The notes under the pieces are model-generated. The model was not told where the DNA came from. It saw only the letters and a list, made by a program, of their open reading frames with translations, and did not search any database. This document shows, one piece after another, positions 2 through 11,167 of a stretch of DNA of 11,184 nucleotides. This DNA comes from Candidatus Heimdallarchaeota archaeon (lineage in GTDB: Archaea > Asgardarchaeota > Heimdallarchaeia > Hodarchaeales > Hodarchaeaceae). The translations under genes and the position numbers were made by a program. The stretch spans positions 1 to 11,184 of the forward strand of contig RDOB01000015.1 in the NCBI GenBank assembly GCA_011364965.1. The letters are read 5' to 3'. Within the stretch, counting starts at the first letter, position 1, and every line of letters begins with the position of its first letter.

Positions 2-2530
2 CTTCCTGATAAAGTAGAAAATCAAACTGGAACCGATCCCAAAGATTCAGATACAGATGACGATACATATAGTGATGGTTGGGAAATTCTTCATGGATAT
101 AATCCTTTGGATAAAGCAAGCCCAGCACGGACTTTGTGGCGAGACTCATTACTCTCAGGAGATAATAGTCCAATAATCGAACGGGATCTTAAAAATATTG
201 ATCGAGTTAAAATTTATCGACATGCAGAAGATGAAGAAGAATATTTATTACAAGATACTGTTAATACTTCATTAGATCAATATTTTTCTGAAGAAATATT
301 TCTTATTGATACAGATGGGAGTGTTGAGTGGACTCATTTTAAATTCGAGTTTTATCGGCAAAATAACTCTGCTGGAACTGAATTTGTAAAGGTCTACGAC
401 GAATATTTCTATGCTTATGATGATGATGGATCTCCGCCTGATACTGATAACGATGATCTCCCTGACTACTATGAAGATAAAATTGGCACGCAATGGGATG
501 GAACAGGATCAGCATATTCGGATACGGATGGCGATGGCATCAATGATGGACTAGAAGTGCTGTTTTATGGAACTTCTCCATTCAAACAGGATTCGGACGA
601 AGATGGCTTGAATGACTTACAGGATTTATGTTATGGCTATCCTTTCTATCCCCAGGAGGGATATCGATTGACTCGTTGGGATATTGATAACGATTCAAGA
701 CCGAATTGGTGGGACTCTGATTCGGATAATGATGGGTTAAATGATTCTTACGAAGATACGAACAGAGACGGCGCATATGAACCTTGGGATTTAAGTGATC
801 TTTTTGACCCTGACACAGATAATGATGGGTTACTAGATGGATTTGAAGTTGAAATTGGCACTGATCCTAAAGACTCCGATACTGATGATGATAACTTTTT
901 GGACGGTTTTGAAGTCCAGAATAACCTGAATCCCAAGGTAGCTGATACATTAGACTGGGCATATTACTTTGCAGAGAATTTTGATTTGAACGACTTGGAA
1001 GACAACGGATGGATTGATATTTCTACCTATGGGACGACACGGGCAGGGGGACTCTCCACAACAACTGCTTATACTAATGAAGAAGCAGAGGAAGACTTTG
1101 TCGTGGGTATTCAGCGCTCTGATAATGATTATAGCGCTTGGAGTCAAGCAGACCTTTATCAATACCAAGTAGATGAAACAATTCGCTATGGTTATGTTGT
1201 CAGTTGGAATCTAACAAATCTACGGTCAGATAATCCTGCGCAAGCGATTGAATCCGCTACAGTCGATTTAAACTGGTATTCAACCACTGATTGGGATAGT
1301 GATGACAAAGTTGCCATGGCATTTATCAATACATATTGCAATGGGAGTTATCTTAACGATTCCAGTCCCAATACCCACATCAACCAATCTCTGTGGTATC
1401 CTCATATCCAGAATGTCTCAGGGATTAGTGTAAACAACGATGCAGATACATTTGACATAGATATCACTGAGTTGGTAGATATCTGGTATAATTACTGTAA
1501 TTCCTCTCTGTTTTCTTTGTATATCTTCCCTGATCCAGAGAATACCATTCAACAGTCTTATGAGCGATTACGCTTTGATCAGACGACATGGAATCCCAAG
1601 ATCACCATAGTAACAGGTGATTCTGTCCTTCGAGCAGCAGCTTATGGTTCATTATCAACAGATTGGCATGGGCCAAAAGTATATTATAATTTCAGTTGTG
1701 ATATCGATGATTTTAATTTCTCGTTCAGTCCTTACTGTGAATCTGCAGGATCAGTAGTCAACAAACAATTAGGAAAATTAATAGTAACCTTGTACACAGG
1801 TGACGCGGGAACAGGAGAGGCGTTATATCAGTTTATTTGGACGGACAGTTGGGGATCTGATTCAAATAGTCGAATTATTTTTAAGGAAAAAAGCACAAAT
1901 TTGTATGATTCTGGAGCAGGTCAGACCTATCGCTACTGGTACAGTGAGACGCAAGATAATGTTACAATATGGCGTAATGAGTCCAAAGTAGTATTGATAA
2001 TAGGGTCTGATGGTTCCTATACGACAGATACGACTGAAAACTCTAATACGACTGCTATCCGAAGTATAACCATCGAATTTCAACAATATAAAACAAATAA
2101 TATCATTCCCAAGCTGGGAGTCAGAACTCTCCTGTTCAAAGGTCATTCTGACAATTATGACGACGATGAATACAATAATACAGAGGAACAGACCTTCGAG
2201 GGGTCAATTTGGCTGGATGAACCTGAAATCTTAGACTCCTCTGATATCACTTGGACTTGGACTGGTTCTCACTGGGCTGCGAATTCAATCATGAAGATTG
2301 CCTGTCACTTCACTGGGGAATATTGGGTGAAGGTCGAATATCGCGTTGAGTCAGGGAGTTGGAATACCGTTCGGGATGAATATGCTGATTTGGTTCTAGG
2401 AACGAATACGATCACTGATAGTCAAATCTGCACGGTAGGAACCTCAGTGAGTGTCACTGTCCGATGGACGATATGGAATGATAATGTATATTGGTCAAAA
2501 GAGGAGACTTCTCCTGCTTTTGAACCTTAA
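2..2530 (+). CDS. Large acidic extracellular/surface protein (5'-partial) with bacterial TSP3-like DxDxDG Ca2+-binding repeats and predicted beta-sandwich domains, including a DNRLRE/CBM96-like module
   Basis: The frame of ORF 107..2530 is open back to position 2 (LPDKVENQTGTDPKDSDTDDDTYSDGWEILHGYNPLDK), so the TTG at 107 is not the true start. Many D-T/S-D-x-D-G-L-x-D-x-x-E repeats (e.g. DTDGDGINDGLE, DSDEDGLNDLQD, DTDNDGLLDGFE). Many N-x-S/T sequons. IESATVDLNWY...FDIDITELVDIWY...NPKITIV resembles DNRLRE-type domains. Ends at TAA 2528-2530 with no C-terminal membrane anchor. Confidence 0.85.
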   Translation, partial: LPDKVENQTGTDPKDSDTDDDTYSDGWEILHGYNPLDKASPARTLWRDSLLSGDNSPIIERDLKNIDRVKIYRHAEDEEEYLLQDTVNTSLDQYFSEEIFLIDTDGSVEWTHFKFEFYRQNNSAGTEFVKVYDEYFYAYDDDGSPPDTDNDDLPDYYEDKIGTQWDGTGSAYSDTDGDGINDGLEVLFYGTSPFKQDSDEDGLNDLQDLCYGYPFYPQEGYRLTRWDIDNDSRPNWWDSDSDNDGLNDSYEDTNRDGAYEPWDLSDLFDPDTDNDGLLDGFEVEIGTDPKDSDTDDDNFLDGFEVQNNLNPKVADTLDWAYYFAENFDLNDLEDNGWIDISTYGTTRAGGLSTTTAYTNEEAEEDFVVGIQRSDNDYSAWSQADLYQYQVDETIRYGYVVSWNLTNLRSDNPAQAIESATVDLNWYSTTDWDSDDKVAMAFINTYCNGSYLNDSSPNTHINQSLWYPHIQNVSGISVNNDADTFDIDITELVDIWYNYCNSSLFSLYIFPDPENTIQQSYERLRFDQTTWNPKITIVTGDSVLRAAAYGSLSTDWHGPKVYYNFSCDIDDFNFSFSPYCESAGSVVNKQLGKLIVTLYTGDAGTGEALYQFIWTDSWGSDSNSRIIFKEKSTNLYDSGAGQTYRYWYSETQDNVTIWRNESKVVLIIGSDGSYTTDTTENSNTTAIRSITIEFQQYKTNNIIPKLGVRTLLFKGHSDNYDDDEYNNTEEQTFEGSIWLDEPEILDSSDITWTWTGSHWAANSIMKIACHFTGEYWVKVEYRVESGSWNTVRDEYADLVLGTNTITDSQICTVGTSVSVTVRWTIWNDNVYWSKEETSPAFEP

Positions 2531-2637: not shown

Positions 2638-2958
2638 CGCTCTGAAAGAAATAACGGCTTCTTAGAACCCACTTTTACTTTTTTTTCCAATTCTGATAAA
2701 GTCTCTATTGATGCCTCAGAGACCTATGTAAAATCTATTATGGAGCTACATAGTATAAGGCTATCTATAACGATTAATGAAGTATACTGAAACCCAAAGT
2801 TCTTCATTTTGGGAATATTAGACTTTACCAATGTTAGTACCAAAACGCTTCAGCAACCCCAAGAATTTGCAGAGCAGCATGGATATTCGCTTTTGACTCT
2901 CAGAGAGACGGATTTTGATTTTTTCACGGACAACGTTCTTTCGATCCTAAATGGCTGA
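2638..2958 (+). pseudogene. Probable pseudogene fragment resembling the C-terminal half (beta4-alpha3-beta5-alpha4-beta6) of a Rab/Ras-like small GTPase
   Basis: Frame +1 reads RSERNNGFLEPTFTFFSNSDKVSIDASETYVKSIMELHSIRLSITINEVY*NPKFFILGILDFTNVSTKTLQQPQEFAEQHGYSLLTLRETDFDFFTDNVLSILNG*, with one internal TGA (2788-2790). FSNSDKVSIDASETYVKSI parallels the Rab pattern FDITDRESFENVKKWLKEI, KFFILGI parallels PIALIGI of the 10246..10926 protein, and QEFAEQHGYSLL parallels its QAFTKKHNIPYY. No P-loop half is visible. Similarity judged by eye. Confidence 0.45.
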
Positions 2959-2999
2959 ATATCATCATTATTCTCCATATCGGGCTTACTACTAATATT

Positions 3000-3247
3000 T
3001 TCGCTTCAACTGTTCCTAACCGCAGGAGGGCTACTCTTGGAAAGAGTGTGGAAATTGAGTTAGATGAGAAAATCCCTCGGGAGATAGTTATAGAAGCAGT
3101 ATTCTGGATAGATTACAAAAATAGCTCTTGATCTGATGTCTGTACGTTGGTTGAGACCTAAATATGAGTTTTTATATATCTCCTCCACTTTAAAAGAGTA
3201 TAATGATTATGTTCGTTAAAGGTATCTTTCTGAAGATTTAAAGTTTA
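3000..3247 (+). repeat. Structured dispersed repeat, copy A (full core 3004-3153 plus a tail shared with copy D)
   Basis: Shares caggagggctact with B and C. Shares aaaatccct, atagaagcag and an identical 24-mer gatctgatgtctgtacgttggttg (3130-3153 = 11122-11145) with C. Shares tgattatgtt...aggta (3204-3224) with D. The right boundary is set by the start of copy B. Confidence 0.85.
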
Positions 3248-3318
3248 CTTCAGCTGTTCCTCACTACAGGAGGGCTACTATTTAGTAAATAGTGGGGAAA
3301 TTGAGTTTTTTTTTAAAA
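3248..3318 (+). repeat. Structured dispersed repeat, copy B (left half only, tandem to A)
   Basis: agctgttcctcactacaggagggctactatttag matches copy C at 32/34 positions, followed by ggaaattgag and a T-run/A-run. Similarity stops ~40 bp before the ABC operon stop codon at 3359. Confidence 0.85.
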
Positions 3319-3358
3319 GACCAGATTTCATTCCGACTGCTAGTACTTGAAATAGCTA

Positions 3359-4279
3359 TCAGCTTTTCTCAAAGGGGACTGCAAGAGAGGTTGGTGCACC
3401 AACGATGCTCTTAACTTTTTGACGCGACAGGATTATTCCCCAAATCGCAAGAAAAAGAATGGTGGAAACATGAGGAGCCATCTTTAAAACAGGTGTTGGC
3501 AGAAATTGTTGAAAATAGTATTTCATGACATCAAAAGTCCCAAATATATAAGATCCTAGAAAAGCGCCAAGCGGATTCCAGAGTGCAACCACCACCAATG
3601 CAATAACGATCCACCCTCGGCCCTGTGTCATTCCTTCAGACCAAAAATTGAGGTAACCTAAAGATAAGTAAGCTCCTCCTAATCCTGACATCATACCTCC
3701 AAAAATGACACAAGCGAACCTCAATAGGTTCACATTTACCCCTTGGTTGTATGCTGCTTCAGGGTTTTCTCCAACAGATCGAATTAAAATACCAATTCGT
3801 GTTTTATAAAGAATAAACCAGCAAATTGGCACCATAATATATGAAAAATAAACTAGTATTGGATGATCGAAGAAGATTTCTCCAATGAACGGTATATCAC
3901 TCAGAAAAGGGATATGAACATTTTCTAAGGTATCAATAGCCTTTCCAATAACTCCACGTCCAAGAATACCACTAAGTCCTGTACCAAGAATGGTCAATCC
4001 AATCCCAGAGACAACCTGAGTTCGAGTAAAAGTAATGGATATTATCGCATGAATCCCAGAGAGCACCCCTCCAAGTAACATTCCAGAAAGAACTCCAATC
4101 CATAGATTTTGAGTACTATAAGCTATTGCATAAGAAAAAGCAGCAGATGCAATTATCATCCCCTCAATTCCAAGATTTAATATCCCTGATCGCTCTGCAT
4201 AAATTTCTCCAAGCGTAGGAAGAAGGAAAAATGTTGCTGCAGCAACGATTGAGCTAAACATTAGGATATAATCTACCAT
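3359..4279 (-). CDS. ABC transporter permease, nucleoside/purine type (NupC/NupQ(YufQ)-like, BPD_transp_2 family)
   Basis: Family motifs LGEIYAERSGILNLGIEG, RSVGENPEAA and GMTQGRGWIVIALV. Multiple TM helices. AGGAGG SD at 4289-4294 (minus strand). Abuts the upstream permease stop. Confidence 0.93.
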   Translation of the reverse strand: MVDYILMFSSIVAAATFFLLPTLGEIYAERSGILNLGIEGMIIASAAFSYAIAYSTQNLWIGVLSGMLLGGVLSGIHAIISITFTRTQVVSGIGLTILGTGLSGILGRGVIGKAIDTLENVHIPFLSDIPFIGEIFFDHPILVYFSYIMVPICWFILYKTRIGILIRSVGENPEAAYNQGVNVNLLRFACVIFGGMMSGLGGAYLSLGYLNFWSEGMTQGRGWIVIALVVVALWNPLGAFLGSYIFGTFDVMKYYFQQFLPTPVLKMAPHVSTILFLAIWGIILSRQKVKSIVGAPTSLAVPFEKS

Positions 4280-5362
4280 TTAGGATTCCCTCCTCATTTT
4301 AATTGTAAAGCGAAAGAAAAATTCGCTTAACAAAACAAAGAATATTATAATCCCACTAAATAGCTGTAATACCGTGGCAGGTATCCCTGTCAATGCTAAT
4401 CCCCCTACTTTTAACGCAGCAAAGAATAATGCACTAACTATAATACCTAAGGGGTTCAAGCCTCCAAGATAGGCAACTGCAATTCCTGTGTACCCATAAC
4501 CTTGGCTTTTTACTCCCAAACGTAATGCATTTCCAGCAACTTCTCCAACTCCAGCAATAGCTGCCATACCGCCAGAAAAAATCATGGTGATTAAGATAAC
4601 TCGAAAGAAACTCATTCCTGCTATACGACCTGCAAGAGGATTTTTTCCCATTACATTAATCTCATACCCTAATTTCAACTTTGGAATTCCATCAATGTTT
4701 CTAAATAAGAAATAATAAACCAAGAGCGTGATAGCGAGAATAAGAAATATGGAAATATAAATAGGAGTGCCTGGAATTTTTGGTAATTGTGCATTTTCAG
4801 GTAATAAAGAACTATAGGTGAATCCTGTCTCAGGATCTCGCCAGAGATCACTAACTAACCATTCCATTAAATATAAAGCTGGAAATACCAAAAGAAAGCT
4901 TACAACAACATCAGCTCCTTGAAATCCTCCCTTAGCACGGAAAAGTACAACTGGAATAGCCCATATCGCTCCTAAAATAAATGCATTTACGAACATTAAC
5001 GGAATAAGAATTATCCCAGGTAAATCAGGAAATAAAAATGCTGTTCCAGTCGCAGTTAACATCCCTATTATATACTGTCCTTCTGCGCCGATATTATCCA
5101 CTCTAGCTTTGAAAGGGATAGCCAATCCTAGCCCAATTGCTAATAGGGGAATAAAACGAGCAATAGTATTAGGAATTAACAATAAATTGACTCGAATCAT
5201 ATCAATGTATGTGATTATTGGATTCACTCCATTAAGTAGGAAAATTAACCCTGCTACAACTAATCCAAACAGCAAAAATGCAATCCTGAATAAGATTGCA
5301 TTGATTCCAGTTATCGGTTCTATCCTTTTTTGGAAGAAAAGTCTATGATTCAAAATTCTCAT
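4280..5362 (-). CDS. ABC transporter permease, nucleoside/purine type (NupB/NupP(YufP)-like)
   Basis: Motifs NIGAEGQY, GYEINVMGKNPLAGRIAGM and GYGYTGIAVAYLG. Many TM helices. GGAGGT SD at 5369-5374. ATGA overlap with the ATPase stop codon. Confidence 0.93.
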   Translation of the reverse strand: MRILNHRLFFQKRIEPITGINAILFRIAFLLFGLVVAGLIFLLNGVNPIITYIDMIRVNLLLIPNTIARFIPLLAIGLGLAIPFKARVDNIGAEGQYIIGMLTATGTAFLFPDLPGIILIPLMFVNAFILGAIWAIPVVLFRAKGGFQGADVVVSFLLVFPALYLMEWLVSDLWRDPETGFTYSSLLPENAQLPKIPGTPIYISIFLILAITLLVYYFLFRNIDGIPKLKLGYEINVMGKNPLAGRIAGMSFFRVILITMIFSGGMAAIAGVGEVAGNALRLGVKSQGYGYTGIAVAYLGGLNPLGIIVSALFFAALKVGGLALTGIPATVLQLFSGIIIFFVLLSEFFFRFTIKMRRES

Positions 5363-6915
5363 ACCAATACCTCCGTTTGGTGAGCTCCTCCCATCATTAG
5401 TCCAATCATTTCTCTGGTTGCATTTTCTCTAGAAATTATACCCATAATTTTCCCTTTGAAGATTACAGCAATTTCATCGCAAAGACTCATGATTTCTGTT
5501 AAATCACTTGAAACAAGGAGGATAGCTGCGCCTTCAGCTCTTTTCCGTAAAAGCTCTTCTCTCACAAATTGAGTTGTACCTACATCTAGTCCAAATGTAG
5601 GATTTTCTGCAATTAGAATCAAATCTTTTCCTTGTTTAAGAGAGAATTCTCGCGCAACGACTACTTTTTGTCTATTTCCTCCACTTAAACTCCTAATTGG
5701 GGAGAGTGGACTGGTTGTTTTGATATTATACCGCCTAATTAACGCTTCTGTTTCTGGAATAATTCTAGAGCGATCTATAATCAAGGATTTCGAATTCTGA
5801 TATGAATTTAACATTAGGTTATCTCTTACTGAAAGGTCAAATATCAAAGCTTTTCGCCTATCCTCTGGAATGTAAGCTACTCCTAATTCCCTAACCTTTT
5901 TTATTGGTTTATTTGTGACATCTTGACCTCTTATCTTAATTCTCCCCTTCTCTAAATTCCTCCACCTAAATAATCCTTCAATTAACTCTCTTTGCCCATT
6001 CCCTGATATTCCTGCTAATCCAAGGATTTGGTTTGTTTTTAAGTGAAGAGAAATTCCATGTACAACTGCATCACCCATGTCATTATTGACTACTGCATCA
6101 TCTAATTCCACAACTATGGTACCAGTATGTACTTTATCTTGATGTAGGTCGTAAAGCACTTCTTTACCAACCATTAGAGAAGCGAGATGCATAATCGCTT
6201 CCTTTTCATTTGCATAATCCTTTCTAAGCTTTTGGGTATCTAAAACTCCCACAACCTCCCCATGTCGAAGAACAGTTATTCGATCACTAAGGTTTATGGC
6301 TTCTTCAAGATGATGTGTAATAATAATAATACTCTTCCCTTCTTCTTTAAGATTTTTTAATAAACTAAACAATCTCTCTATCTCAGGGGGAGTTAACATC
6401 GCAGTTGGTTCATCAAGAATCAAAATACTTGGATTAGTAATTAATGCCTTGAGGATTTCAACACGTTGTTTTTCTCCTCCAGATAACTTCCAAACCTTAG
6501 CTTTAGGGTTGATATCACCTAAATTAAATTTCTGTAGTGCTTTCTTAATTGCACGTTCGATTTCCGCTAATGATAGAAAAAAGCCTTCAGAAAAGCTTAA
6601 AATGTTTTCCGCAACTGTGTGACGTTCAATAAGAGATTTAGATAGATCTTGACGAGCAATTGCCAACTTATATTCTTTAATTGCTGTCAAAGGATTGTCT
6701 AAATTCACTTCAACTCCATTAATAAAAATATGGCCTGAATCAGGGGGAAAAAATAATCCATTAACTAGCGTCGACTTGCCTGCACCATTTTCTCCCAAAA
6801 TAGCATGAATTTCACCTTTATTTAAAGAAAAATTCACATGATCATTCGCTTTAACGACAATACCATCGCCATAGAAAGTTTTACAGATATCTTTCATCTC
6901 TAAGACCGAATCCAT
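5359..6915 (-). CDS. ABC transporter ATP-binding protein with two fused NBDs, CUT2 sugar/nucleoside type (NupA/NupO(YufO)-like)
   Basis: NBD1: Walker A GENGAGKS, LSGGE signature, Walker B ILDEPT, ITHH. NBD2: degenerate GISGNGQR, LSGGN, IAENPT. The start is reassigned from 6978 to ATG 6915 (MDSVLEMKDI), which has GGAG 8 nt upstream. Confidence 0.93.
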   Translation of the reverse strand: MDSVLEMKDICKTFYGDGIVVKANDHVNFSLNKGEIHAILGENGAGKSTLVNGLFFPPDSGHIFINGVEVNLDNPLTAIKEYKLAIARQDLSKSLIERHTVAENILSFSEGFFLSLAEIERAIKKALQKFNLGDINPKAKVWKLSGGEKQRVEILKALITNPSILILDEPTAMLTPPEIERLFSLLKNLKEEGKSIIIITHHLEEAINLSDRITVLRHGEVVGVLDTQKLRKDYANEKEAIMHLASLMVGKEVLYDLHQDKVHTGTIVVELDDAVVNNDMGDAVVHGISLHLKTNQILGLAGISGNGQRELIEGLFRWRNLEKGRIKIRGQDVTNKPIKKVRELGVAYIPEDRRKALIFDLSVRDNLMLNSYQNSKSLIIDRSRIIPETEALIRRYNIKTTSPLSPIRSLSGGNRQKVVVAREFSLKQGKDLILIAENPTFGLDVGTTQFVREELLRKRAEGAAILLVSSDLTEIMSLCDEIAVIFKGKIMGIISRENATREMIGLMMGGAHQTEVLV

Positions 6916-7119
6916 TCGCATAACTCCAACGTTTACTCCATGATAACGCAGTAGACCATAAAACAAGAATTCAGGCACTGATTTAGTATAGAGAAAAGAT
7001 AGTGAATTTTAATAAAAATTCATTCTTAGAAAAATCTAAACTAAAACTTGGAAATTAGAAAGACTAGCGTGTTGTATTCCTACATAATTTAACCAATATT
7101 AGTTAATAGCAGAAATTGT

Positions 7120-7144
7120 AAAAAAAAAGAAAAAAGGAAAAAAA
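7120..7144 (-). terminator. Oligo-U terminator/attenuator after the BMP gene
   Basis: Plus-strand A-tract aaaaaaaaagaaaaaaggaaaaaaa is a U-tract on the minus strand, ~10 nt after the BMP stop codon. Confidence 0.6.
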
Positions 7145-7153
7145 GTAGGGAGT

Positions 7154-8311
7154 TTATCCTGGAGTACCTATAACACCGTCCACGAACCAATCCATATACG
7201 TGAAGAGGTCAGGTATAGTGGCTTGTACTCCCGCAGCAAACATTAGTGTTCCATTCTGAGCATAAATAGGCCCTGTGAAAGGGAAGAACGTCTCAGCTGC
7301 CATTTTATCATGTTTATCCATGATGTAGTCGTAAGCATTTGTTGCACCAACAGTTATACTTTGCAATTCAGGTACGAAGAGAGGATTAATAGGAACGTCG
7401 AAATTTCCGCCTAATTCGACTGCACCTTCTTTGAGGAACCATAAATAGTCCACATCAGATAAATTAGTAGAATTATAGGTTCCATCATAAACTTTGGATA
7501 GTATCTCGTCATACATGATATCCCAATGGGCCAACTGACCTGAAATTGTGCTCTCAGGAGCATAGCTTTGCATGGGTGAGTAGTGACTAAAAGCATACAC
7601 GTCATCTTCTTCTTCCGCTGCTTGCATGACTGCAGGACTATCTTCTGTGAAAGCCAACATGTCCACACCTTTACCTATAAGGGAATTTGCAGCACTTGTG
7701 GCGGCAGTAGGATCGTACCATGAATTAATCCAAGTTACTTCAACTGTAGAATCGTTATTTGCAGCTTTCATACCAAGTGTGAATGCATTGATATGGCGGA
7801 TAACTTCTGGAATTGGGAATGCGCCAACATATCCTGCTTTCGTTGTATTAGAGAGATAGCCAGCCATCATTCCATTCAGATAGTACATCTGATACAAATC
7901 TGCGAAATAGGTTCCAACATTTGCAGCTCTTTTGTAGCCAGAACAGTGAAAGAATAGTGTATCTGGGTGTTCTGCTGCAGCTGCAATGGTGCCATCCATA
8001 AATCCAAAGGAAGTTGTGAAAATCACATTACATCCTTTGACGGTTATCAGAGTGTCAGCTGCTTCTTTAACGGATGCGATATCTTCACCGACGGTTTCTA
8101 TGTATTCTGTGCCGAGCCAAGAATACTTCTCATCTACGTAGACTCGTCCGACATCATGAGCATTAGTCCACCCATAATCACCGATCGGTCCTACATAGAT
8201 AAATCCTGCTTTAACCTTGACTGCCTCTGGACCTGTACATCCAGAAAAAGCAACCAAAAGCATTAATATACCAAATATCAAGAATATTCTAGAATAAGTT
8301 GATTTTTTCAT
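7154..8311 (-). CDS. BMP family (PnrA/BmpA/Med-like) ABC substrate-binding lipoprotein, likely nucleoside/purine binding
   Basis: Signal peptide with lipobox-like AFSG-C. Family motifs KAGFIYVGPIGDYGWTNAHD, IFTTSFGFMD and GYVGAFPIPEVIRHINAF. First gene of the ABC operon. Confidence 0.93.
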   Translation of the reverse strand: MKKSTYSRIFLIFGILMLLVAFSGCTGPEAVKVKAGFIYVGPIGDYGWTNAHDVGRVYVDEKYSWLGTEYIETVGEDIASVKEAADTLITVKGCNVIFTTSFGFMDGTIAAAAEHPDTLFFHCSGYKRAANVGTYFADLYQMYYLNGMMAGYLSNTTKAGYVGAFPIPEVIRHINAFTLGMKAANNDSTVEVTWINSWYDPTAATSAANSLIGKGVDMLAFTEDSPAVMQAAEEEDDVYAFSHYSPMQSYAPESTISGQLAHWDIMYDEILSKVYDGTYNSTNLSDVDYLWFLKEGAVELGGNFDVPINPLFVPELQSITVGATNAYDYIMDKHDKMAAETFFPFTGPIYAQNGTLMFAAGVQATIPDLFTYMDWFVDGVIGTPG

Positions 8312-8346
8312 AGGTTATCAACCGAATTTTATAGACATCAAATTAA

Positions 8347-8354
8347 TATTTAAA
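8347..8354 (-). promoter_or_regulatory. Candidate archaeal TATA box for the BMP/ABC operon
   Basis: TTTAAATA on the minus strand 36-43 nt upstream of the ATG at 8311, with purine-rich GAAAAA further upstream. AT-rich background makes this tentative. Confidence 0.35.
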
Positions 8355-8368
8355 CATTAGCGATTTTT

Positions 8369-8481
8369 CATGATAGATTTGGCGCTTGCTCTGCTGTCTG
8401 TACCTTGGTTGGACAATTATTTTAGTGATTTTGCCTTTTCTAGACTGAGATTCTTTCCCTGATTATGTTATTTACTAGGTA
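8369..8481 (+). repeat. Structured dispersed repeat, copy D (right half only)
   Basis: ttggcgcttgctctgctgtctgtaccttggttgg (8379-8412) matches C 11113-11146 at 30/34 positions. Also catgatag (8369-8376 = 11092-11099), gtgattttg (8425-8433 = 11159-11167) and tgattatgtt (8460-8469 = A 3204-3213). Confidence 0.8.
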
Positions 8482-8576: not shown

Positions 8577-9278
8577 GTGGTTGAAATGGACGCAAAGAAG
8601 CAAAAGGAACCATCAGAGAGTCCGAAACCTCAGCGTAAAATCCTTCTGATGGCTTTAAGTGCTTCAGGACGCACGGGAATTGCGAAGAAATTTATCGATG
8701 AAACCTGGCCGCAGGATGACAAAGCATACTACAAACCAACTATTGATTACGAACGCCACACACGTGTGATATGTGGGACTGAATTCGTAGTGTTTGATTG
8801 CGGGGGACAAACCGCCTTTATGGACCAATTTACTGGCAAGTTAGCTGAATTTATGTTCTCAAAAGTAGCAAGTTTAGTGTTCTGTGTAAATGCGTCTGCG
8901 AATGGTATTGGCCAGATCTCCCGAGCAAAATATTATTTTGACCTGGCGTTACACCGACTTGAGACTTACAGTCCCTCCGCAATGGTCTTCCTGATCCTCA
9001 CGAAAATGGATCTAGTTCCAGAATCCCTTGAAGAAGAAGTAGTGGAAGCCATCATCACCTATATACTCCATCAAGTACCGAAAAAAGTCATAATTTTTCA
9101 CACCTCGATTTTTGATTATACCGCCACGCAAGCGGTAGAATCCATTATTCGGGCAAACCTCCAGGTTTTTGATCCGGTTATCAGTCAACTCAACGGGAAA
9201 CGTTTCAAGACTCTCGAAGATCCGTTTCATACGCAAGCTATTCAGGAAGCACTCCGAATCCTCAAGTCCACGGATTAA
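8577..9278 (+). CDS. Gtr1/RagA-family small GTPase (G-domain only) with a non-canonical P-loop
   Basis: RKILLMALSASGRT (G1), PTIDYE (G2), FDCGGQ (G3), TKMD (G4) and TSIFD (G5) parallel Gtr1/RagA motifs MGxSGSGKS, ATIDVE, WDCGGQ, HKMD and TSIWD. No C-terminal roadblock domain. The start may be ATG 8586 rather than GTG 8577. Confidence 0.85.
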   Translation: MVEMDAKKQKEPSESPKPQRKILLMALSASGRTGIAKKFIDETWPQDDKAYYKPTIDYERHTRVICGTEFVVFDCGGQTAFMDQFTGKLAEFMFSKVASLVFCVNASANGIGQISRAKYYFDLALHRLETYSPSAMVFLILTKMDLVPESLEEEVVEAIITYILHQVPKKVIIFHTSIFDYTATQAVESIIRANLQVFDPVISQLNGKRFKTLEDPFHTQAIQEALRILKSTD

Positions 9279-9503: not shown

Positions 9504-10211
9504 GTGAAGCTGCAATCCGCACTAACAACAATTGGCTTTTTAGCCTTATTCATATCTCCTATTTTTTCAGCCATGGGAATCCAGACAGAAGTCGCTTATA
9601 GAGAGTTCCCTGTCGGAAATGCATATTCGTGGCAATTTCTGACAGTTTTAAATGATTCCCAACCATGTTATACTACTTGGCGTAGTGGATTAGATAACTT
9701 GACACAAAATGATAAAATATCTCTGAAAATTCTCTTTTCCACCAACTCTTCCCTTAGATATGAAATTTCTGCCAATAGTCAATCATTTGAGGAAGGATTT
9801 GTGTTAAATTCCTTCTTACAACAACTAGGAGAAGGAAATTCATATATACACCTCGGGTACTATTTTTTCCTTCCAACAGGAGAGGAATTCTGGAGCGAAC
9901 TGGCATTGCACATTAGTTCTACTATCCCAGCCGCTGATGTCCACAATAGGGAATCCATTTTTTCATTTAATGCTTCAACAATCTTTCATCAAACATATTC
10001 TTGGGAGTTTGATAAAGCAACTGGTCTTTTGAGATCATTTAGGCAAATTGTGCGGGATCCCAACTTGAATTATGGACCACGTACCCCAGATGAATTGTAT
10101 TTACTTCGGACGGATTTGAAGTCGAAGTTACCCGAACTCACTCATATAACTGTTGGAATATTGATTCTCGGAGGCTTCATTCTGTTACTTGTGCTTAGAA
10201 AGAGACAATAA
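9504..10211 (+). CDS. Hypothetical type-I membrane/cell-surface protein
   Basis: N-terminal signal-like hydrophobic stretch, beta-rich ectodomain with sequons (NDS, NLT, NSS, NAS) and a WEFDKATGLL motif, C-terminal TM helix ITVGILILGGFILLLVL followed by RKRQ. Confidence 0.75.
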   Translation: MKLQSALTTIGFLALFISPIFSAMGIQTEVAYREFPVGNAYSWQFLTVLNDSQPCYTTWRSGLDNLTQNDKISLKILFSTNSSLRYEISANSQSFEEGFVLNSFLQQLGEGNSYIHLGYYFFLPTGEEFWSELALHISSTIPAADVHNRESIFSFNASTIFHQTYSWEFDKATGLLRSFRQIVRDPNLNYGPRTPDELYLLRTDLKSKLPELTHITVGILILGGFILLLVLRKRQ

Positions 10212-10245: not shown

Positions 10246-10926
10246 TTATGATTCTTGATCCATGGAAGCTCCTTGAGCTGTTAAAGCTTTCTTCGCTAGT
10301 TCGGTGAGGATATATTCCACCTGGGATTTTTTATCTGTGAGAGTGATTTCGTAATATGGTATATTATGCTTCTTTGTAAATGCTTGCACATCCGCTATAT
10401 CGACGGGAATTAATTCAATTGCTTTTGCTTTTGGATGTTTTTTACCTTGTTTTTTACCTAATATCCGCTGAATTTGTCTAATAAATTTCCTTACATACCC
10501 TATTTCGGTTATTCTAGGCTCTTTAGTCCTAATTTCTTCAGTTCTAATTTCTTCAGTTCTAGGTTCTTCAATGCCTATCAGAGCAATTGGAATAGATGCG
10601 TCTGGGATATGTTTTCGGAATTCCGCTAACCAACTTAAAGCAAAAGTTTTCTTTTCATTTAGAGCGAATATTATTAAACAAGCCGATGCTCCTCTGTAAT
10701 AGCTAGGCCTGAGTTTACCAAAAAATTCCTGTCCTGCAGTATCCACAAGAATGAGCTTCACTCGATTATTCCCGATCTGAATTTTTTTAGTTGTGATATC
10801 CACTCCCAAAGTTGGCATATAATTGGTCGTAAATTTACCTTCTGCATATACCCTGACTAGTTGTGTTTTATATTTTGAGGCTCCTATTATACAGATCTTC
10901 AGTAAATACTCGTTTTCCCCACTCAT
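10246..10926 (-). CDS. Rab-like small GTPase-fold protein with degenerate G1/G4/G5 (probable pseudoGTPase)
   Basis: YLLKICIIG start, YMPTLGVDI (G2/RabF1), KLILVDTAGQE (G3), YYRGA (RabF4). G1 is GASKYKT, the G4 position reads GIEE and the G5 position reads EITL. No C-terminal cysteines. Confidence 0.85.
   Translation of the reverse strand: MSGENEYLLKICIIGASKYKTQLVRVYAEGKFTTNYMPTLGVDITTKKIQIGNNRVKLILVDTAGQEFFGKLRPSYYRGASACLIIFALNEKKTFALSWLAEFRKHIPDASIPIALIGIEEPRTEEIRTEEIRTKEPRITEIGYVRKFIRQIQRILGKKQGKKHPKAKAIELIPVDIADVQAFTKKHNIPYYEITLTDKKSQVEYILTELAKKALTAQGASMDQES
10511..10570 (-). repeat. Four imperfect 15-bp in-frame tandem repeats inside the Rab-like gene (EEPRT-EEIRT-EEIRT-KEPRI)
   Basis: Plus-strand units attctaggctcttta / gtcctaatttcttca / gttctaatttcttca / gttctaggttcttca. 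Confidence 0.9.
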
Positions 10927-10990: not shown

Positions 10991-11167
10991 TTCGTTAGCT
11001 GTCCCTCACTGCAGGAGGGCTACTATTTAGCACCTAGTATGGATATTGAGATTTTTTAAAAAAATCCCTAGTGAGACAGCGATAGAAGCAGCATGATAGG
11101 TATTCATACAACTTGGCGCTGGATCTGATGTCTGTACGTTGGTTGGGAAGTATTTAGCGTGATTTTG
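10991..11167 (+). repeat. Structured dispersed repeat, copy C (full core, may continue beyond the window end)
   Basis: Colinear with copy A over ~150 bp. Left half matches B (32/34) and right half matches D (30/34). Begins ~65 bp upstream of the Rab-like start codon. Confidence 0.85.

Follow-up and report, generated by a model that had tools for sequence, protein, structure and literature searches.

A Bmp/PnrA-type importer operon between two truncated 23S rRNA-like tails in a putative cassette array of a Hodarchaeales archaeon

The importer operon

The window, i.e. the whole stretch of DNA that was analysed, is the complete 11,184-bp contig C8 (RDOB01000015.1) of Candidatus Heimdallarchaeota archaeon GCA_011364965.1, an assembly of 2.97 Mb in 16 contigs. 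It contains a four-gene ATP-binding cassette (ABC) importer operon, which lies between two partial copies, B and D, of a repeat of which two full copies, A and C, occur in the same window. From its sequence we conclude that each repeat is an orphan tail made up of the final ~30-45 nucleotides (nt) of the 23S ribosomal RNA (rRNA) and of ~105-130 nt of trailer, which include the 3' strand of the pre-23S processing stem. The window itself is probably a piece of an accessory-gene cassette array behind the 23S gene, of a kind built by the species of this Hodarchaeales genus. The source genome is labelled G000 below and the 21 congeners with which it was compared carry the other G numbers, G006 being Ca. 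Hodarchaeum mangrovi; copies of the repeat outside the window are named by their coordinate on contig C12 (c503, c510, c515 and so on).

All four genes of the operon are located on the minus strand. The first encodes a Bmp/PnrA-like substrate-binding protein of 385 amino acids (aa; 7154-8311; PF02608, 3.5e-42), and is followed by the genes for a fused double ABC ATPase of 539 aa (5359-6978; two stretches matching PF00005, 2.3e-43), for permease 1 of 360 aa (4280-5362; PF02653, 1.4e-23) and, as the last gene, for permease 2 of 306 aa (3359-4279; PF02653, 6.5e-37). The four open reading frames (ORFs) are intact and all matches are above the curated Pfam cut-offs. A Bmp-family binding protein, a fused double ATPase and two BPD_transp_2 permeases also make up the known Bmp/PnrA-type importers, and to judge by these domains the operon is an importer of that type (CUT2 class, nucleoside or purine); unlike the known ones, it belongs to an archaeal (Asgard) clade of the family. 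A TATA-like box, TTTAAATATT, is present at 8345-8354 on the minus strand, ~35 nt upstream of the ATG, and may act as the promoter of the operon.

The nearest operon is found in Ca. H. mangrovi, with 76.7% nt identity over 3363-8328 and 81-88% aa identity (81% for the ATPase, 87.5% for permease 1 and 88.6% for permease 2). Upstream of the TATA-like box, which is shared by the two species, the likeness does not extend beyond a few bases (pairwise alignment A4). On the promoter side of the H. mangrovi operon the next 1.1 kb are without a tail of that species' own type, and at the other end its contig breaks exactly at the permease stop codon. The operon is present in five of the 21 congeners; in G002, G013, G010 and G020 it has other gene neighbourhoods, without common flanks and without detectable tails. 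A maximum-likelihood tree of the binding protein joins the window and H. mangrovi (100/100) within a Hodarchaeales group (100/99), which is itself part of an Asgard clade of 17 rows (100/98), and the bacterial binding proteins fall outside that clade. The RpoB cores of the relatives are all 94-96% identical, which is uninformative for ordering them. From the tree of the binding protein together with the unrelated contexts in the congeners, we conclude that the operon is a mobile accessory unit within the lineage, Asgard-native and not a recent cross-domain import. The initial annotation had raised horizontal transfer of the ABC genes as a matter for such a tree; the nesting within the Hodarchaeales and Asgard clades speaks against a foreign import. 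Its description of the operon, with a candidate promoter of its own, as a discrete accessory unit between repeat copies is in line with the conserved TATA-like box and the intact ORFs.

Full and partial copies of the repeat

The best-conserved block in the right half of the repeat is the 17-mer GATCTGATGTCTGTACG, which is kept genus-wide. A repeat profile of 149 positions was built from full copies and used for a whole-genome nhmmer search. Copy A (3008-3154, plus strand; positions 2-149, E 1.5e-39) is a full orphan tail with an exact 17-mer at 3130-3146. Copy C (10997-11167, plus strand) is likewise a full tail, of which 10997-11146 match the profile (positions 2-149, E 2e-42); it carries a 3' extension in addition and lies 17 nt from the contig end.

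Of copy B (3252-3318, plus strand; positions 2-67, E 7e-14) only the left part is present. It comprises the 23S-derived end, an inserted hairpin (see below), the GGAAATTGAG box and a T9A4 tract, through which it can be followed by eye to about profile position 75. In the 48 nt that follow B no trace of the missing right part remains (local score 16, with shuffles at 16.7+-2.0). A resumption of B in the right half past an internal deletion, with AGATTTCATTCC resembling AGATATTCATAC, was considered and rejected, since it scored no better than shuffles.

Copy D (8366-8436, plus strand; nhmmer positions 110-149) consists of the right part only. Its best local alignment to full copies has a score of 59, against 20.4+-2.8 for shuffles, a value reached by none of 500 shuffles. 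D is solid from 8379 (TTGGCGC...), following a weaker CATGATAGA lead-in from 8366 and a 12-nt internal deletion, and carries the trailer with the processing-stem 17-mer (8388-8404, three mismatches) and the subfamily extension ATTATTTTAGTGATTTTG. It is 87% identical to C12:510699-510639 over 61 nt. The 57 nt that precede D do not resemble the absent left part.

B and D have the same orientation as A and C, and the pair brackets the complete four-gene operon: B is 41 nt from the permease stop codon (3359) and D 55-58 nt from the start codon of the binding protein (8311). In the profile, B stops near position 75 and D starts at about 97-115, so that the two do not overlap and both truncations are on the operon side. 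What is missing between them is the central TCCCTCG.GAGATAGCGATAGAAGCAG block, together with the deletion in D. The profile, the shuffle tests and the measured distances thus bear out what the initial annotation had described, namely a left half and a right half in the orientation of the intact copies, ~40 bp and ~58 bp from the ABC stop and start codons, which when joined lack central bases plus a short stretch of D. An extension of D to 8481, claimed at the same time, is not retained, as the likeness stops at 8436 (GTGATTTTG).

An arrangement of this kind could in principle be an assembly or binning artefact, produced by chimeric joins at the repeat or by a contig of another organism. The contig does have a repeat copy at its end, and Logan contigs stop inside B (at 3278) and near D (8417-8461). 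However, both junctions are identical in an independent sister metagenome-assembled genome (MAG), GCA_016839295.1, which is 99.8% identical, and in Logan contigs from at least five sequencing runs, and are therefore not assembly artefacts. Four contigs, from four runs, span the operon, an unchanged D and the adjacent Gtr1-like gene, and one contig spans all of B; the runs that hold the locus are SRR29850972, SRR29850973, DRR851354, DRR851358, DRR851359, DRR851362, SRR11241200 and SRR11241202. Chimeric joins at repeats, moreover, yield full hybrid copies and not truncated ones, and paralogs at 79-87% identity tie C8 to contigs C12, C2 and C14 of the same bin. We regard an artefact as extremely improbable.

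Derivation of the repeat from the end of the 23S rRNA

The sole large-subunit (LSU) rRNA match in the genome lies at C12:515329-515019 and covers model positions 2721-2973 of 2987 (222 bits). The sarcin-ricin loop, AGTACGAGAGGAAC, is visible in it, and it continues unbroken into copy c515. The model places the first ~32 nt of the repeat (~45 nt with weaker upstream likeness) in the end of the 23S rRNA, the remainder being trailer. The blocks GTGTGGAAATTAAG, TCGTCAG.TAG and TGATCTGTTGTCTGTACG are also found behind the contiguous 23S 3' part of the relative G005 (alignments A2 and A3). The copies of the repeat run up to and past the 17-mer, the exact reverse complement of which occurs in G001, 92 nt upstream of the 23S 5' end; this complement in the 23S leader identifies the 17-mer as the 3' strand of the pre-23S processing stem. 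In contrast to the 222-bit match of the genome search, cmscan of locus L028 gave no match at either threshold. The rRNA identity of the repeat rests on the 222-bit match, the visible sarcin-ricin loop and the alignments, and not on cmscan.

A structured non-coding RNA family was considered as an alternative and rejected: the window has no Rfam match at E<=1, and the consensus fold is weak (-5.8 kcal/mol, three covarying pairs). The likeness is accounted for by descent from rRNA.

Most tails have a hairpin of 11-20 nt inserted in the 23S-derived part (CTACTATTT..AAATAGTG versus CTACTCTT..AAGAGTG, with a compensatory change from A-T to C-G). It is located at 3040-3058, 3275-3296 and 11021-11042 in the window (columns 37-52 of alignment A1), and is missing from c515, c498 and c525 and from the 23S ends of the relatives.

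The tails fall into classes by their 5' boundary. Long orphan 23S tails occur in at least seven species and all start at position 2721 of the LSU model, immediately ahead of the sarcin-ricin loop (G000 C12:515019-515329; G001 C52 and C45; G002 C65; G003 C184; G008 C8; G012 C390; G013 C70). In other tails the boundary is at about -110 nt (G006, twice) or about -45 nt (most copies of G000 and the second copy of G005), and still others are trailer-only. A candidate for a segment common to the tail copies is about TTGGCGC.TGATCTGATG.

The array in this genome and its relatives

The profile search returned 26 significant copies genome-wide, four of them on C8 (plus strand) and 22 on C12:440.8-525.1 kb (all on the minus strand), i.e. 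in the last 85 kb of that contig; all 26 are co-oriented. No significant copy was found outside this array in the 2.97 Mb, the only other match being C12:200824 (E 0.34). As all copies are confined to C8 and the end of C12, the repeat is not a dispersed family but belongs to one array.

The genes between the copies are diverse and found on both strands. Among them are ABC and FtsX transporters, eight Ras-family GTPases, PadR, EamA, a nucleotidyltransferase, a GH38 mannosidase and many genes of unknown function, and the Ras/Roc genes form a paralog cluster within the array. The 18-kb block of the array contains an AbiEi-like/AbiEii toxin-antitoxin pair (C12:476104-478048, minus strand). The assembly's only TnpB/Cas12f-like (OrfB_IS605) gene is also located in the array (C12:480975-482240, minus strand), 318 nt downstream of copy c482654.

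Several parts of the window have counterparts on C12. The stretch from 2680 to 3155 is 79% identical over 490 nt to C12:496431-495943, which covers the end of the ORF C12:496153-497070 and a tail. The remnant of a gene 3' part at 2680-3007 (plus strand), in which no ORF of at least 80 aa remains, thus goes back to a duplication that also took in copy A, its source being the cassette with its end at C12:496099. Copy A is 92% identical to C12:506103-505962. The 97-nt spacer between A and B (3155-3251) resembles a nearly emptied cassette, and its last 23 nt are 95.7% like the 5' flank of copy c506103. At the other end of the window, the 5' end of a Ras gene, a spacer and copy C are together 86% identical to C12:501208-500947; this gene (10246-10926, minus strand) encodes a Ras/Roc-family small GTPase of 226 aa (PF00071, 2.4e-27) and is one of the eight Ras genes of the array. 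The sister MAG extends 153 nt beyond copy C (L141 10592-10744). These 153 nt match nothing in the G000 assembly, from which it follows that the array runs on into DNA missing from that assembly and does not join the end of C12.

The 17-mer also occurs in co-oriented clusters in G008 (a whole contig of 54.7 kb, with ~19 copies), G003, G017, G014 and G005, with ~0 for a reversed-pattern control. Ca. H. mangrovi has three tail copies within 3.8 kb. Contig C44 of G005 has a contiguous 23S 3' part with the trailer behind it, and 3.7 kb further on from the real 23S end there is a second tail.

We propose that the tails, all in the same direction, would serve as joints at which blocks of genes are added, duplicated, deleted and exchanged. 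In the window, duplication accounts for the gene remnant with copy A and for the Ras gene with copy C, deletion for the emptied spacer between A and B, and exchange between strains for a swapped left part of B (see below). The Asgard-native operon, with its own promoter box, would have come to lie in the array as one block. That recombination takes place at the tails is what we infer from these arrangements.

The initial annotation had instead considered the operon as cargo captured between the ends of a non-autonomous mobile element, with any enzyme acting in trans. A transposable element of this kind, similar to a miniature inverted-repeat transposable element or derived from an insertion sequence, would fit the layout of left part, cargo and right part in one orientation, and one TnpB-like gene is present in the array. 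That gene, the only mobile-element gene in the array, lies within a cassette and not between halves, and the repeat is derived from the 23S rRNA 3' end and its trailer. No terminal inverted repeats are found, as the two ends of the repeat are not complementary (alignment A1 and consensus fold) and its centre is among its best-conserved parts. There is also no target-site duplication, no copy outside the array and no other unit of left part, cargo and right part. We consider such an element very unlikely. The broader suggestion of an undescribed repeat-based gene acquisition in Asgard archaea survives at the level of the array but not in the form of a mobile element.

As had been stated before, no integrase or transposase is encoded in the window. 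In the whole of G000 no resolvase or Y1 HUH transposase was found, and its two tyrosine recombinases (PF00589 matches) are limited to C9:581481-581972 and C1:548-1051, i.e. to contigs other than C8 and C12. The array contigs of G008, G003, G017, G005 and G014 lack a tyrosine recombinase as well. A look for a recombinase, HUH or DDE gene flanked by the same halves had been recommended earlier; among the tyrosine recombinases, resolvases and HUH transposases searched for, none is linked to the array. The tyrosine recombinase gene of contig C1 (230-1219, plus strand) is at the very start of that contig; as a candidate for the enzyme of the array it has no adjacent tail copy or transfer RNA (tRNA) gene, and no link to C8 or C12.

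Separate tails or one split tail

For the origin of B and D two explanations were compared. We lean slightly (at a probability of roughly 0.55) towards B and D being separate decayed tail copies, a separate origin that we infer. D would then be a right-only joint of a kind that is present four other times after full copies, and B a tail of which the 3' part was lost by later deletion or replacement. That B and D together nearly rebuild one copy would be due to chance, at about 1 in 5.

The genome contains five right-only copies, the 5' breaks of which fall near positions 65, 81, 86, 95 and 97. Each of the four on C12 (c508540, c500004, c484980 and c486199) comes after a copy that is full or nearly so, which indicates that right-only joints arise without a split. 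B is the sole left-only copy among the 26. A second one, c482654, seemed to be cut by the TnpB-like gene, but it has the 3' end of the element (TCGTTGGACAAATTAT) and is thus an internally deleted copy, which leaves B as the single case. Each of the five right-only copies would seem to complement B, and as five of the 25 other copies are right-only, a right-only neighbour of B is expected by chance at ~0.2 (5/25); statistically the bracketing is not strong. In the array of G008 both left-only and right-only copies are present, never as complementary neighbours.

The other explanation takes B and D as the two parts of a single orphan 23S tail, which lay 97 nt behind copy A and before the Gtr1-like gene, and into the centre of which the 5-kb operon was inserted. 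The insertion would have occurred by break repair or illegitimate recombination with a loss of about 22-40 central bases, the 12-nt gap in D arising later. We consider this possible but rather doubtful. It agrees with the shared orientation of the two parts, with B ending at ~75 and D starting at ~97-115, and with their truncations facing the operon; B is the genome's only left-only copy, and the operon unit in common with H. mangrovi ends within ~10 nt of D. A close tandem of tails has a precedent in c486199 and c486071, which are 74 nt apart, and the clustering of the right-only 5' break points at positions 65-97 could mark a fragile or targeted centre of the tail. In addition, copy C is a near relative of both parts. 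The best relatives of the two parts nevertheless differ, being c503 for B (86%) and c510 for D, although the copies are mosaic, which makes an argument from subfamily affinity weak. A split tail is further opposed by the chance of ~0.2 for the adjacency, by the four other right-only copies without an upstream left half, and by the lack of a second case of left part, cargo and right part in G000 or in the array of G008. The junctions of B and D show no target-site duplication, direct repeat, microhomology or clean break, and at least 22-40 nt are missing between the parts. Finally, no empty site was found. Among 12 contigs with the exact Gtr1-like protein, every contig that extends upstream carries the operon (five contigs span D), and two exact-pattern scans of metagenome contigs gave 0 matches.

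These results leave three earlier statements standing in part. That a single element gave rise to B and D is possible, though not demonstrated: the parts are complementary and do not overlap, against which stand the chance of ~0.2, the missing empty site and the unmarked junctions. Half copies that are abundant and randomly truncated genome-wide, which had been named as an objection to the bracketing, do not describe this genome, where the copies are confined to one array; the objection holds in so far as four other right-only copies lack a left half and the neighbour has a chance of ~0.2. The second objection, that relatives carry the operon without the halves and that no empty site exists, applies to the H. 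mangrovi operon, which has no promoter-side tail, and to the empty site, of which none was found; it fails in that the positions of the operon are not the same.

A number of points weigh against reading the window as an array piece in which B and D decayed separately. Neither a full 23S gene nor the 16S gene is assembled in G000, and there is no contig-end overlap by which C8 could be physically linked to C12. A recombinase tied to the array was not found. The only left-only copy adjoins a right-only copy, the two being cut on the operon side and free of overlap, and copy C ranks in the top three relatives of B as well as of D. A single insertion accompanied by a small deletion is as economical an explanation of the pair as a separate deletion in B. 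Under strict site-specific accretion, moreover, the 3' boundary of B (~75) cannot be an original attachment-site (att) boundary; it lies upstream of any crossover point that fits the other copies, so that an extra event is needed under every model.

B and D may tentatively be seen as the preserved footprint of an insertion step, in which a tail broke at its centre, on the stretch from the T-run to the processing-stem strand of the trailer, and captured the 5-kb operon; the odds are rather against it. If this is true, new DNA enters an integrase-less array by breakage inside a tail and not by recombination at the tail ends. The break would be located to about 25-40 nt, where the other right-only 5' break points also cluster, and would point to the site of DNA breakage and hence to the kind of enzyme to be sought. 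If B and D were never one tail, the pair represents ordinary decay inside an unusual array.

Strain-level change

Between the window and the sister MAG there are 20 differences, and 10 of them lie in tails, though the tails make up only ~4% of the window. Copy A is changed at 3088 and 3123 and copy C has an 8-nt deletion in its hairpin, whereas the operon, B and D are without differences. In run SRR11241202 (L138 1820-1894, corresponding to 3251-3320 of the window) the left part of B belongs to another tail variant, with ~12 changes in 60 nt. The few visible bases 5' of B differ as well (flank TGATAGCAG), while the T-run, the junction and the operon are the same. Since the junction was kept while the left part was swapped, B was truncated before these strains diverged, and what remains of it still takes part in exchange between tails. 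The variant itself suggests that recombination occurred within the tail and that B has another neighbour upstream in that run.

Comparison with known systems

Genomic islands and integrative elements accrete in tandem at the 3' ends of tRNA and transfer-messenger RNA (tmRNA) genes, and the repeats in such arrays are att remnants, i.e. partial copies of the stable-RNA gene. The array described here shares with them that the direct repeats are copies of the 3' end of a stable RNA, lie in one direction, probably behind the gene, and delimit accessory blocks that vary among close relatives; their 5' extents also fall into discrete classes, as those of att blocks do. It differs in that the anchor is the 23S rRNA gene with its trailer and processing stem, that no block contains an integrase, that the blocks are small (0.1-5 kb) and numerous (at least 26), that many copies are truncated, and that the 3' boundary of B is not an att boundary.

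Co-oriented similar repeats of ~120-150 nt, small cassettes with accessory or unknown genes and a species-specific content are also features of the Vibrio super-integron, with its attC sites of the Vibrio cholerae repeat (VCR) type, and of the archaeal integrons (Ghaly et al. 2022; PMC9668308). In contrast to these, the present array has no adjacent IntI and no imperfect attC palindrome (R''/L''-L'/R'), and its repeat is derived from rRNA. The cassettes of integrons are short and mostly promoterless, with one gene each, whereas here the genes are on both strands, a TATA-like box of their own is present, and one cassette is a four-gene operon. The array thus works like the att-remnant arrays and resembles a sedentary chromosomal integron, but it belongs to neither, because it has no integrase and no attC-type palindrome and because its genes lie on both strands with their own promoters.

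A fast-changing region abutting the 23S gene is known from SAR11, where rRNA sequence was proposed as the homology for exchange between strains (hypervariable region 2, HVR2; 2007, PMC2217521). HVR2 is one block between whole rRNA genes and has no orphan 23S tails or cassettes (PMC2217521). The aloposons (PMC8813620) were also considered and are unrelated, since they carry giant genes and have tRNA sites as their place of integration. In the literature searched no description was found of orphan 23S tails as cassette joints without an integrase.

The 23S-tail arrays appear to be a separate route by which Asgard archaea collect and reshuffle accessory genes, among which are many small GTPases of eukaryote-like families. 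To this the window contributes an array piece with a whole transporter operon and strain-level evidence of ongoing change, with half of the sister differences in tails and the left part of B swapped elsewhere. It also contributes the genome's only pair of a left-only and a right-only copy, the one place where an insertion step might be readable.

Other genes of the window

The left flank of the array piece is formed by a gene for a large secreted or surface protein with bacterial TSP3 repeats (2-2530, plus strand; PF18884, 6e-16), the 5' end of which runs off the contig. Compared with the 99.8%-identical sister MAG, this gene is changed in its repeat region and has clustered substitutions (1-720 and 1459-1468). 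The 418 nt of the sister contig upstream of window position 410 have no match in the G000 assembly.

Behind D, and as part of the next cassette, lies the gene for a short Gtr1/RagA-like small GTPase of 233 aa (230 aa in other calls; 8577-9278, plus strand; PF04670, 1.1e-23), which has no ortholog with more than 48% identity among the 21 congeners. Short Rag/Gtr1-like GTPases, of 233 and 196 aa, are array cassettes in two species (8577-9278 in the window and G008 C8:16921-17436), while the usual copies in the genus are ~310 aa.

The gene at 9504-10211 (plus strand) encodes a protein of 235 aa without a Pfam or PDB match. A paralog of it is present on C2 (40000-40759), outside the array, with 87% identity at the DNA level over 761 nt, which suggests that genes move between the array and other parts of the genome.

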